From: Aquifex aeolicus VF5
Lineage (GTDB): Bacteria; Aquificota; Aquificia; Aquificales; Aquificaceae
Assembly: GCF_000008625.1 (NCBI RefSeq)
Contig: NC_000918.1
Span: 480,001-512,000, forward strand
Direction of reading: 5' to 3'
Length of the DNA stretch: 32,000 nt
Part shown: positions 8,204 to 13,454 of the stretch, one piece after another
Position numbering within the stretch: position 1 is the first letter of the stretch
How the letters are laid out: the number at the start of each line of letters is the position of its first letter
Translations under genes and position numbers: made by a program
The notes under the pieces: model-generated
Databases searched by the model: none
What the model saw: only the letters and a program-made list of their open reading frames with translations
Told to the model about the DNA's origin: nothing

Positions 8204-9792
<1,589 letters not shown>

Positions 9793-9818
9793 TCTCATAC
9801 CTCCGCTTATCTTTTCTA

Positions 9819-9827
9819 ATTATAACA
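9819..9827 (-). promoter_or_regulatory. Extended -10 promoter element for tsf (TGTTATAAT)
   Basis: Minus strand reads TGT-TATAAT, a perfect TGnTATAAT, about 27 nt upstream of the tsf ATG at 9792. It sits immediately downstream of the IS right end. Confidence 0.45.
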
Positions 9828-9844
9828 GGCTCAAAAGGGAACTT

Positions 9845-10000
9845 TTGCGGGAGGAAAGTGTGAACTATCCCGCATCATAGATGCGGGGCTTCGGGTGGGT
9901 TTACACCCTCTTTGGAGTGCCTTACCACCACGGGCAGGTTCACACCGCCCCTACTCCTGCCTATCCCGCCATACAGCGGAATAGCGGAGCTACTTTCCCT
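9845..10000 (-). ncRNA. Candidate omega-RNA (reRNA) scaffold plus predicted guide of the TnpB element; 5' end undefined and may extend towards ~10100
   Basis: GC island by hand count: 62 of 100 nt in 9881-9980 versus 36 of 100 nt in 10401-10500 within the same ORF. Stacked hairpins: GGGTG/CACCC at 9893-9908, GGCAGG/CCTGCC at 9933-9961, CCGC/GCGG at 9966-9979, and the RE hairpin. The position at the tnpB 3' end matches known TnpB omega-RNAs. Confidence 0.5.
9869..9887 (-). repeat. Right-end (RE) subterminal hairpin of the IS
   Basis: Plus strand CCCGCATC-ATA-GATGCGGG, 8 of 8 bp. It contains the tnpB stop codon (9877-9875). Confidence 0.8.
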
Positions 10001-11269
10001 CAACTTGAAAAATACTCTTAACCTTATCGGCCTCAATATCCCACTTATCAGGTCAAATTTCCCGAGTTTCTTTAGCAAATTCCTGCAAGCGTTTACATCA
10101 GCATTCAAAAAACCCAAAAGTCTTGTCCTGAAAAGCCCTCTCTTTACCCTCGCTTCGGGAGTGTAGGTCTCTTTATTAACAGCTCCCTCTACGGAGCTGT
10201 CCACTCCCGAAGTGTAAGCTTCAGAAATATATTCAACTTCTATTCCATATTCTTTTGCCTTGTATTCCAAATACTCTTTTACCTTTCCGTGCGGTAACAA
10301 ACTCCATATTTGATCTGCTACACTACTCAGTTTACTTTCTTTATTCTTGTTCCTTGCCGCATCGCCTATGTATATTTTCCTAACTCCGTATTTAAGGGCA
10401 AGTTCCAATATCAGGTTGCTTATTGTATGGGCATAGTGTTTTAAAAGCCTCTTTACTTTGAGCCATAATCTTGAAATTCTCTCCTCCAGAAAGTGAGTTA
10501 AAAATCCTTTCTTTTTAGCTCCTTCAAGTCTGCTTTGAAGACTCGCTATTTTCTTTAAGTATTTCCTTAGCAAACTCTTTAATCCATTCCCGTCAATTAT
10601 GTAGGGTTGGGGTATGCCTTCTATTACTATTGCGAAAAAGTTTGATGAGTTCGGATCTAATACCATCACCTTGTCTTGCTTTAATAGTTTTTCTCCATTC
10701 TGAGGTTTTTCGTAGATTATGTGGAGTTCAAACTCCTTAGCGTTGGCTTTCGGAACAATTTGAATATTCTTTATCAACCTTTCGTCCAGCTCCAATCCCG
10801 TATCCAGCCAAAGGTATTTAAGCTCTATTCCATGTTTTTCTTTTAGCCATTGCCTTAAAGCCTTTGAAAGAGAAAGTCTTATTTTTGTTCCCACAACTTT
10901 AAAGCCTGTTTGGTCGTAGGTTATGGTTCTGTGTGGTTTGTTTTTAGGTCTAAATTTTGGCGGTTTAACTTCCTGTCCTTTAAACTTTTCTGGATTATGC
11001 AAAAACTCAAACCAGTTTTTAAAAGCTCTAACAAGTTCGTCCAAGACAATTTGAGCACAGCGACTTTGAAGGTTTTTAAGATGCAAAGAATTGTCCTTAA
11101 GCTTGTTATAGAGGTCGTAGGTGTTTACTTTTGCCTGTTTGGTTTTAATGGAGTAAAGAGCTTGATTAAAGAGCCTTCCTGAATGGTAGGTAAGGTAGCC
11201 TAAAACGATTTTGTATTCGTTAGGAAGGTCTGTAAAAGCTATAGTGATGCATCTTAGAGGTTTTGGCAT
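9875..11269 (-). CDS. tnpB: TnpB/OrfB-family (IS200/IS605, IS1341-like) RuvC-fold protein, atypical: zinc-finger cysteines absent and canonical RuvC-II Glu replaced
   Basis: 464 aa. RuvC-I VMVLDPNSSN (D205). Then WSLLPHGKVKEYLEYKAKEYGIEVEYISEAYTS, followed by FLNADVNACRNL (RuvC-III D391). GAGGT SD 9 nt before the ATG. Family assignment is by motif order seen by eye. Confidence 0.85.
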   Translation of the reverse strand: MPKPLRCITIAFTDLPNEYKIVLGYLTYHSGRLFNQALYSIKTKQAKVNTYDLYNKLKDNSLHLKNLQSRCAQIVLDELVRAFKNWFEFLHNPEKFKGQEVKPPKFRPKNKPHRTITYDQTGFKVVGTKIRLSLSKALRQWLKEKHGIELKYLWLDTGLELDERLIKNIQIVPKANAKEFELHIIYEKPQNGEKLLKQDKVMVLDPNSSNFFAIVIEGIPQPYIIDGNGLKSLLRKYLKKIASLQSRLEGAKKKGFLTHFLEERISRLWLKVKRLLKHYAHTISNLILELALKYGVRKIYIGDAARNKNKESKLSSVADQIWSLLPHGKVKEYLEYKAKEYGIEVEYISEAYTSGVDSSVEGAVNKETYTPEARVKRGLFRTRLLGFLNADVNACRNLLKKLGKFDLISGILRPIRLRVFFKLRESSSAIPLYGGIGRSRGGVNLPVVVRHSKEGVNPPEAPHL

Positions 11270-11324
11270 TTGAGTGACCTCACAAGATTCATTTTAAAAA
11301 ACTGCTTACACAGGCGGCTTCTGT

Positions 11325-11345
11325 CCCCGTATCATAGATACGCGG
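11325..11345 (-). repeat. Left-end (LE) subterminal hairpin of the IS
   Basis: Plus strand CCCCGTATC-ATA-GATACGCGG, 8 of 9 positions paired. Same loop and stem register as the RE hairpin, with one compensated C:G to T:A change. Confidence 0.8.
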
Positions 11346-11379
11346 TTTTAGCCCGCGGATTTACTATAAAATACAAGTA

Positions 11380-13454
11380 ATGGAAGAAGAAAAAGTAAAA
11401 GAGGGATTGTGGGAGTTAGCTTACAACCTGTGGTGGACGTGGAATCCGCCGGCTAAGGAATTATTCAGAAGCATTGACCCGCTTTTGTGGAAGGAAACTA
11501 AGGAAAACCCCATTGAGTTATTGAGGAAAACCAAACTCCTTGAAAACAAGCTCAAAGACGAAGATTTTATATCTCACTTCAAGTACGTTTATTCCCTTTA
11601 CAAAACCTACATGAACAGGCATTCGAAATACGAGGATACGTATAAGAAGCCTATAGTTTTCCTGTCTCCCGAGTACGGACTTCACCACACACTACTTATA
11701 TACGCGGGGGGACTGGGCTTTTTAGCAGGAGATATACTCAAGGAGAGCAGTGACTTGGGATTTCCGCTTATAGGTGTCGGGTTTATGTACCCTCAGGGCT
11801 ACGTAAAGCAGAGGATAAGGGTTGACGGATGGCAGGAAGACCTTGACGCACAAAATCAAAAGGAATTAATGCCCGTTAAAAAAGTTCTGGACAAAGAAGG
11901 AAAATGGCTCAAGTGCTACGTTTACGTAAGGGATGAAAAGGTTTACTTTGGAGTCTGGGAAGTTAACGTGGGAAAGACAAAGCTCTACCTTCTTGACACG
12001 AACGTAGAGGAAAATACTCCCTGGAACAGGGAAATATCCTCAAGACTCTACGTTCCGGACAAAGACCTGAGGTTAAGACAACAGATAGTTCTTGGTTTTG
12101 GCACCGTAATACTCCTTGAAAAGCTGGGCATTGATGCAGGAGGTTTTCACATAAACGAAGATTATCCCTCGTTCGTGTTCCTTGCAGAAATATTTAAACT
12201 TCTAAAAAAAGGTCTGACCTGGGATAAGGCGATAGAAGAAGTAAGAAAGATTTCTCTCTTTACCACGCACACACCACTACGGGTTGCCGTAAATACTTAT
12301 CCCTTCCACATGATAGAGGAACAGTTTCTATTCGTTAAGGATGTTTACGGAATAGACGTAAAGAAAGTTCTGGAACTCGGAACGAATCCTGAAGACCCTT
12401 CGGAGGGTTTTAACAGTACGATTATGTCCCTCAGACTCGCAAAGTACGTAAACGCAGTGAGTAAAAGACATCAAGAAGTTTCAAGCAAGATGTGGAGTTT
12501 TTTATTTAAAGAAAAGGAGAATCCAATAGATTACGTAACGAACGGTGTTCACTTTCCCACATGGATTTGTTCAGATTTGAGAAGACTGTACGAGGAGTAT
12601 TTGGGAGAGAACTTTGTGGAACTTCACGACCACAAGTCTCTGTGGGAATTAATAAGAGACATACCCGACGAAGAACTGTGGGAATATCACATAAGAAATA
12701 AAGAAAGACTTATTGAGCACATAAAAGACAGGGCAAGGGAAAGGTGGGTCAAGGAAAAAGCGGATCCTTCAATCCTTATGGCCGAAGGTCTGTTCCTTGA
12801 TTCTGACGTTCTTACGGTCGGTTTTGCGAGGAGGATGACCGGTTACAAAAGACCGGATCTTATATTCACGGATGTAGAACGCTTAAAAAAGATAGTGAAT
12901 GATTCGGAAAGACCTGTTCAGATAATATTCGCGGGAAAGGCTCATCCGGCTGATATCGAAGGGAAAAAGATAATCCAGAGAATATTTAACTTTGCGAAAG
13001 ATCCGGAATTTGGGGGAAGAATAGCTTTCGTTGAAGATTACGACGAACTCCTTGCCCATTACATGGTGAGGGGTGTGGACGTATGGTTGAACAACCCTCT
13101 TCCTCCCCTTGAAGCCTGCGGGACAAGCGGTATGAAAGCTTCTATGAACGGAGTGCTTCACCTTTCAATACTTGACGGTTGGTGGATTGAGGGTTATAAC
13201 GGAAAGAACGGTTGGGCTTTCGGAGATTACGAAGTTGAAGGAGACAGGAACAGAGCGGATGCGGAGGCCATTTACAACATCCTTGAGAATGAAGTAATCC
13301 CCCTTTATTACGAAAGGGACGAGAGGGGAGTGCCAGTTAAGTGGATAAGTATGATGAAGGAAGCTATAAAAAGCATTACCCCTAACTTTTGCTCCAGAAG
13401 GATGTTAAAAGATTACATAAATAAGTTCTATTCAAAAATTTTAAAGGAGGAGGG

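Follow-up and report, generated by a model that had tools for sequence, protein, structure and literature searches.

A GC-rich island that overlaps the 3' end of a tnpB gene in the genome of Aquifex aeolicus VF5 is very probably the gene of an omega RNA (reRNA) carried by an insertion element of the IS200/IS605 family. The element occupies 11365-9860 on the minus strand of the window, by which we mean the whole 32,000-nucleotide (nt) stretch of DNA analyzed here (contig NC_000918.1, positions 480,001 to 512,000), and it lacks tnpA; all coordinates below are window positions, and features lie on the minus strand unless stated otherwise. The idea came from a sequence-only reading of the island and was borne out: the host gene encodes a TnpB, the RNA scaffold ends at the conserved right end (RE) of the element, the sequences flanking related elements are unrelated, the helices of the scaffold covary, and the C-terminal tail of the protein, which overlaps the scaffold, is largely free of coding constraint. 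The covariation analysis over homologous elements that had been proposed as a check gave strong support, and the tail was found to be largely without coding-type conservation.

The compositional contrast noted by hand in the sequence-only reading was reproduced on recounting, with a GC content of exactly 0.62 at 9881-9980 and 0.36 at 10401-10500. The GC content of 9860-10009 is 0.567, compared with 0.378 in the rest of the tnpB gene and 0.441 in the whole window. The tnpB frame does pass through the whole island, the open reading frame (ORF) at 9875-11269 being open across it, and its stop does fall within the RE hairpin at 9887-9869, the TGA at 9877-9875 being shared by the loop and the 3' arm. 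The minimum free energy of the minus strand from 9840 to 10060 is -86.8 kcal/mol, whereas 200 dinucleotide shuffles of the same segment gave -66.6 ± 4.7 kcal/mol (z = -4.27), and none of the 200 was equally stable.

Thirteen sequences were aligned with MAFFT, blind to structure, and five helices and a pseudoknot were written down on this alignment. The covariance model built from it matched once in the window and 43 times in related loci, and the window scaffold, at 161.9 bits, scored third best of the 44. Sliding the pairing partners by one to three columns served as a control, together with 500 shuffles for the 44-sequence set. In the structure-blind set, 95.7% of the cells are paired (36-48% when slid), and 20 double-changed pairs are found versus 2-7 in the slid controls. 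In the 44-sequence set, whose alignment was fitted to the structure and whose values are therefore flattered, 91.9% of the cells are paired (39-51% when slid), compensatory changes occur in 37 of the 46 pairs, and the covariation score reaches 0.515 compared with at most 0.094 in the controls, and none of the 500 shuffles attains these values; the structure-blind result agrees. By a tally of the 44-sequence table, about 9% of the cells are G-U pairs, which assigns the structure to the tnpB-sense strand.

As delimited by the covariance model, the scaffold spans 9860-9997 (the match, 9856-9997, less 4 nt of flank), and its five covarying helices, S1 to S5, span 9989-9868. S1 (9954-9989) consists of an outer CUCC/GGAG stem (9989-9986 with 9957-9954) around an inner hairpin at 9980-9965, and both sides have changed in 12 of its 14 pairs among the 44 sequences. 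S2 (9932-9950) is a 6-bp hairpin with the 7-nt loop UGUGAAC (9944-9938); five of its six pairs are compensatory and 91% of its cells are paired in the larger set, with 100% paired in the set of 13. S3 encloses S4 (9893-9931; S3 pairs 9931-9925 with 9898-9893, and S4 pairs 9920-9915 with 9908-9903), and together they show compensatory changes in 11 of 12 pairs; pairing extends to 94-98% of the cells in the two helices of more than one pair and to 74% in a single outer pair. S5 (9868-9888), the RE subterminal hairpin with the loop CUAUG and the tnpB TGA (9877-9875) inside it, is compensatory in seven of eight pairs of the larger set. The hairpins proposed in the sequence-only reading fared unevenly. 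The one at 9869-9887 is S5 and has covariation behind it, and the one at 9966-9979 is the inner part of S1 (9965-9980). The hairpin at 9933-9961 agrees only in part with the supported S2 (9932-9950). The hairpin at 9893-9908 had to be given up, its bases being the 3' strands of S3 and S4, which covary.

The ORF at 9875-11269, of 464 amino acids (aa), encodes a TnpB. Its product matches OrfB_IS605 (2.1e-12) and Cas12f1-like TNB (2.1e-10) in Pfam, and the nearest sequences of solved structure are AsCas12f and a TnpB. Its AlphaFold2 model, with a mean predicted local distance difference test (pLDDT) score of 79, was matched by Foldseek to Cas12f, the ISDra2 TnpB (8h1j), the ISFba1 TnpB and Fanzor2, with E values from 1e-17 to 1e-11. 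All family-invariant residues are intact, including D205, E350 and D391. In the alignment with AsCas12f the catalytic Glu falls opposite G302 (IYIGDA) of the window protein, and both G302 and E350, which lies 48 residues farther downstream, are invariant among 21 homologues. None of the four zinc-finger cysteines is present (YTSGVDSS..., residues 354-390). As judged by motifs rather than by phylogeny, the protein thus fits a rearranged RuvC-II type with a relocated Glu and no zinc finger. RIIr-5 TnpBs likewise have the canonical Glu changed to Gly and an alternative Glu (PMC10691335), and in Fanzor2 and 'TnpB2, pro-Fanzor' proteins the Glu is shifted by +50 (PMC11832414), compared with +48 here; in difference from these RIIr-5 and TnpB2 clades, the zinc-finger cysteines are also wanting in the window protein. 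TnpBs are especially frequent in Aquificae (PMC10691335). Among 334 protein hits, homologues of the window TnpB are plentiful in Aquificota (Thermocrinis, Hydrogenobacter, Hydrogenivirga, Persephonella, Desulfurobacterium), and further ones occur in Dictyoglomus and some archaea.

A total of 78 related loci were collected, 33 of their 3' ends were aligned with the window, and 20 left-end (LE) flanks were compared. In all 33 of the 3' ends, similarity reaches ...GGGRTAGTTCAC and then ends, with the next bases differing even inside subfamilies. The final GTTCAC corresponds to 9865-9860 in the window, placing the RE junction at 9860|9859. Upstream of the start codon, LE (11270-11365) has its subterminal hairpin at 11343-11327; the loop, ATCTATGAT, recurs in the RE hairpin at 9887-9869, and the two hairpins form a direct rather than an inverted repeat. 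Hairpins with a common loop that stand as direct repeats at both ends make up the end arrangement of IS200/IS605; as in that family, the subterminal hairpins are imperfect and terminal inverted repeats are absent. Directly 5' of LE stands TTTAT (11366-11370), whose five bases are each shared by 18-20 of the 20 LE flanks; sequence farther upstream is unrelated. Judging by this conservation, TTTAT is likely the target-adjacent motif (TAM) and the insertion target. The two bases that follow are AG in the window (11365-11364) and AA, AT or CT in relatives, and they may belong to the TAM or to LE.

Since similarity ends at GTTCAC (9860), the guide is predicted to start at 9859 (ACTTTCCTCC..., ACUUUCCUCCCGCAAAAG...). 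The predicted guide, ACTTTCCTCCCGCAAAAGTT (9840-9859), is flank DNA that is not shared with relatives, and a length of 16-20 nt would be expected by analogy with characterized TnpB systems. The sequence-only reading was right in principle to look for the guide just beyond RE, and its start at 9863 has to be moved 4 nt farther out, to 9859: the first four bases of the guide it gave (TCACACTTTCC..., from 9863), TCAC, are conserved scaffold. The window holds no second guide target with fewer than three mismatches, and thus no second perfect copy.

The same reading had directed the guide toward the promoter region of the downstream gene, tsf. An extended -10-like box, TGTTATAAT (9819-9827), lies upstream of tsf and downstream of the guide; it reads TGnTATAAT in Aquifex relatives without the insertion and is kept in three Aquifex strains with differing upstream neighbors. 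This conservation suggests that 9827-9819 is likely the extended -10 promoter of tsf, which the consensus promoter scan missed because it has no -35 element. The relatives without the insertion share the window sequence only from 9831-9827 downward, so the guide (9859 to about 9840) abuts the conserved promoter core and does not cover it; its position is where a -35 element would be. For the same reason, 28-32 nt between RE and the tsf promoter have no counterpart in these relatives. The element is co-oriented with tsf, and RE lies 62-68 nt upstream of the tsf start codon, which is at 9798 or, more likely, at 9792 (the start on record). No terminator-like site was found 3' of RE, and the consensus scan found no sigma-70-type promoter upstream of S1. 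Comparison loci (L161, L163, L164, L169) were reached through elongation factor Ts (EF-Ts) proteins 95% and 88% identical to that of the window. The gene upstream of tsf, which is divergent from it, encodes DUF501 in A. pyrophilus, A. aeolicus and others and a metal repressor in L163; in the window, glgP and the element stand there. Such differing upstream neighbors in close strains place the element at a synteny breakpoint. At its other end, LE and TTTAT (11364-11382 region) lie about 10-16 nt upstream of the ATG at 11380 (plus strand) of the divergent alpha-glucan phosphorylase gene, before which no Shine-Dalgarno sequence is visible; on the plus strand the TAM region reads CTATAAAAT and resembles a -10 box. 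Either the insertion has pushed the phosphorylase promoter out of place or the transcript has almost no leader.

The last six nucleotides of the element, GUUCAC (9860-9865), are complementary to GUGAAC in the S2 loop, and the two segments (9943-9938 with 9865-9860) form a candidate pseudoknot. The minimum free energy fold closes the scaffold with a nested stem, GUGUGAAC/GUUCACAC, which was rejected, because conservation is confined to its 6-bp core and the two pairs outside this core draw on bases of the flank. The core itself is taken to be the candidate pseudoknot with the S2 loop and not part of a nested stem. In Fanzor2, a pseudoknot of the omega RNA is built from the final nucleotides before the guide (PMC11832414).

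Several observations weigh against the omega-RNA reading, and a number of them concern this pseudoknot. In the 44-sequence set its helix is 85% paired and nearly invariant, with two single-sequence compensations only (in L009, a C-G pair has become U-A); the almost complete lack of covariation arises because both strands are nearly invariant. Hydrogenothermaceae-type relatives have the loop UGGUGAC, shortened to GUGAC, which pairs more poorly with GUUCAC, the loop GUUUAC of a subgroup from one archaeal metagenome-assembled genome (MAG), S141, shows no complementarity to the terminal GUUCAC, and RNAalifold offers an alternative in which GUUC has a 4-bp partner at 10017-10014. A scan of the whole window against Rfam at gathering thresholds gave no match. 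The RE hairpin is closed by C-A in the window (9888/9868), compared with C-G in 38 of the 42 relatives that have letters at both positions. In the tail of tnpB, a residual excess of third-position changes is present, although it is weak (p = 0.013). No uninserted site was found among the related loci, so the TAM and the LE boundary are drawn from conservation: a metagenome scan with EF-Ts yielded one close locus only (L079, with rpsB upstream of tsf), and in an exact look-up of the tsf protein the version starting at ATG 9798 had no match, while that starting at ATG 9792 was found on three contigs, all of which carry the insertion. Finally, the window contains no tnpA, no second tnpB and no second scaffold copy.

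Some of these points would also fit a decaying or domesticated copy that no longer homes and is either inert or affects expression of tsf-pyrH-frr through read-through, an explanation that we regard as quite unlikely. The window copy is single and is without the Y1 (HUH) transposase that characterizes IS200/IS605. In five related loci (L001, L002, L004, L040, L048), LE and tnpB are separated by additional sequence that shows an N-terminal KYQIAY-type motif; the ORF in this place in L001 is a Y1 transposase (Y1_Tnp, 1.9e-45), and the other four align there. The window copy, having no tnpA, is thus a non-autonomous, IS1341-like derivative, which would be mobile only with a transposase from elsewhere. 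Decay or domestication would further agree with the occurrence of the same insertion in three of three contigs with identical tsf, with the co-orientation, short distance and lack of a terminator-like site between RE and tsf, with the location at a synteny breakpoint, and with the C-A mismatch at the base of the RE hairpin. Against it, the ORF is intact and keeps its family-invariant residues (D205, E350 and D391), the scaffold and both ends score on a par with relatives that look active, and the conserved extended -10 box for tsf persists downstream of the element. TldR proteins are recognized by a dead nuclease, lost ends and a fixed association with a target gene; in the window TnpB the three catalytic residues are kept, LE, RE and the TAM motif are present, and the relatives occur in many different contexts.

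The ends of IS200/IS605 elements carry subterminal hairpins that are recognized on one DNA strand. It could be argued that the structure is such a single-stranded DNA feature of the right end, serving TnpA only, and not an RNA. S5 is a subterminal hairpin of this kind with a twin in LE, and the strand specificity is compatible with this explanation too, as G-T pairs are tolerated in DNA hairpins. However, the covarying helices S1-S4 reach 130 nt inward from the end, LE has a single matching hairpin region with no counterpart of S1-S4, and the architecture matches that of RNAs from tnpB 3' ends (sot0042, HgcC) and of the ISDra2 omega RNA (PMC10097598). We therefore hold a DNA-only role to be very improbable; S5 itself probably has a dual role, as a DNA hairpin recognized by TnpA and as a part of the RNA scaffold.

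Whether RNA or protein constraints shape the segment encoded by the scaffold was examined by comparing codon positions in 18 full-length relatives aligned to the window gene. From the ATG to 10010 the third position is the less conserved one, with a difference of -0.10 to -0.29 in every 60-nt bin; over 10009-9860 this difference shrinks to -0.02 to -0.04. The mismatch fractions at the three codon positions are.225/.186/.422 in the core and.272/.241/.307 in the tail. The AlphaFold2 model has a pLDDT of at least 74 through residue 420, and over residues 421-464 the score falls to 24-36. Since the codon of residue 421 begins at position 10009, the boundary in model confidence and the boundary in substitution pattern coincide. 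The last 44 codons of tnpB (aa 421-464, 9878-10009), which overlap the scaffold, have thus largely lost the wobble pattern. The sequence-only reading was right about the presence of such a tail and overestimated its length, which is 44 aa as measured here rather than 54-60 aa; residues 411-420 (ILRPIRLRVF, a predicted strand) are still protein-like. The end of the protein also varies. The commonest stops in relatives are the TGA of the RE loop, at -17 from the element end, and the TAG of GGGTAGTTCAC, at -7, which means that relatives use different frames at the end; other stops occur at -150, -98, -74, -59, -55 and -34, and beyond the element at +21 and +49. The scaffold motifs GGAGUAG (9951-9957) and GGUAAGG (9921-9925; GAUAAGG in some relatives) are invariant and contain UAG and UAA. 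As these fall in the two frames other than that of tnpB, only the tnpB frame can remain open across the scaffold, and in most relatives it continues into the last 20 nt of the element.

The flat codon pattern, the low pLDDT and the differing frames together indicate that the tail is shaped mainly by the RNA, as had been proposed. Some peptide-level constraint may persist, as the weak residual third-position signal suggests. It is scarcely credible that the tail serves a function in the protein and that the RNA structure arises secondarily from its codons: IG-RSRG-VNLP-VVR is recognizable in relatives 47-50% identical, and the residual excess and the open frame would agree with it, but codon-position mismatches are nearly flat, the compensatory changes in 37 of 46 pairs alter the peptide, pLDDT is below 40, several relatives have premature or late stops and differing end frames, and the equivalent segment of ISDra2 is dispensable (PMC10097598).

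Variants of the scaffold were observed among the relatives. In the six loci of the MAG S141 subgroup (L011, L013, L014, L028, L034, L045), S2 is replaced by GCGUUUACCAAGC and S1 is shortened, and L037, from the same MAG, retains the canonical form; the subgroup represents either a structural variant or decaying copies. A 108-bit scaffold copy with a divergent S1 lies at 1392-1532 of L058 (minus strand of the locus), inverted beside tnpB fragments, and looks like a rearranged or nested remnant. Weak model matches (about 20 bits, E of about 1e-5) were found at tnpB 3' ends in L057 (2442-2579) and L068 (2466-2638), from a Burkholderiales MAG and Cohnella, whose TnpBs are only 25-29% identical. 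Parts of the scaffold core (AAAGUAG...GGnGUAG and the next hairpin) may be widely conserved.

Two described RNA families resemble the scaffold below their Rfam thresholds. On 9855-9995, sot0042 (RF02656) scored 11.5 bits, compared with a gathering threshold of 88; it scored better on two relatives, L032 (29.3 bits, E = 9e-4) and L027 (23.5 bits, E = 0.047), and HgcC (RF00062; gathering threshold 50) scored 26.9 bits (E = 0.034) at the same place in L032. Like the scaffold, both families lie at the tnpB 3' end on the sense strand, and the order of helices is equal in the cmscan alignment; sot0042 and the window scaffold also have the motif AAGUAnCUCC...AGGAGUA in common. HgcC was originally discovered by GC-content screening of hyperthermophile genomes, the logic also followed here, in that the island stood out by its GC content from an AT-rich thermophile genome. 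The sot0042 RNAs are Halobacterium sense-overlapping transcripts of IS1341-type tnpB genes (PMC4615843). In contrast to these families, the hosts of the window type are bacterial (Aquificota), and the scores are far under gathering. The scaffold family is thus a distant relative of the described tnpB 3' RNAs and not a member of them by the Rfam criterion. A link to the asd/MarS small RNA (RF01732) on 9863-10008 was also considered and dropped; the resemblance (CAGGAG and the loop UGUGUGAACCU; 11.6 bits, E = 4) was not found again in 16 relatives and is probably due to chance.

The best-characterized system for comparison is the TnpB omega RNA (reRNA) of ISDra2 from Deinococcus radiodurans, reportedly described by both Karvelis and Altae-Tran in 2021. 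It derives from the tnpB 3' end and RE, the TnpB residues 376-408 that overlap RNA nucleotides -109 to -10 are disordered and dispensable, and the nucleotides directly before the guide form a pseudoknot (PMC10097598). The window locus is alike in that an RNA gene would lie over the tnpB 3' end and the right end, with the flank past RE as the guide, and in that the C-terminal peptide encoded by the overlap is predicted to be disordered. Its scaffold, too, is built of several stems, and a segment farther upstream is complementary to the last nucleotides ahead of the guide. The TAM of ISDra2, TTGAT, and the candidate TTTAT of the window are both T-rich 5-nt motifs beside LE. The two RNAs have no detectable sequence similarity, and they differ in the partner of the pseudoknot: in ISDra2 this is a strand beside stem 1, and the candidate in the window is a hairpin loop some 80 nt upstream. 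The window protein also has neither a zinc finger nor the canonical RuvC-II Glu, its element lacks tnpA, and the window system is known from sequence alone. Overlap of gene and RNA, a dispensable tail and a flank-derived guide are already established for ISDra2.

By analogy with ISDra2, a mechanism can be proposed for the window element. Transcription of tnpB would run on through RE into the flank, and the 3' part of the transcript would fold into a scaffold of about 130-150 nt, comprising S1-S4, the RE hairpin S5 and probably the pseudoknot between the S2 loop and GUUCAC. TnpB would bind this scaffold and probably trim the transcript, and the 16-20 nt past the element end, from 9859 downwards, would serve as the guide. 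The complex would then cut guide-matching DNA beside TTTAT, the state of the donor site once the element has been excised; recombination of the cut site with a sister copy would restore the element and favor its retention. The occupied site would be spared, as the RE end rather than TTTAT precedes the target there.

A more far-reaching proposal is that the locus is the founding member of an uncurated omega-RNA family, characterized by a guide-proximal pseudoknot with the S2 loop and belonging to zinc-finger-less, relocated-Glu ('pro-Fanzor'-like) TnpBs of hyperthermophiles, and that the element or its nuclease may have mediated the rearrangement upstream of tsf-pyrH-frr, with read-through possibly feeding the operon. 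We consider this combination unlikely. The understanding of TnpB systems in general is unchanged by this locus. What it adds is a covariation-backed structure model of an omega RNA for a hyperthermophilic TnpB lineage of Aquificota, together with an exact boundary between scaffold and guide, the candidate TAM TTTAT, and a TnpB in which the catalytic site is rearranged and the zinc finger is absent. The model can be used for curation of a new RNA family, no Rfam family reaching threshold, and the system offers a candidate thermostable miniature RNA-guided nuclease.

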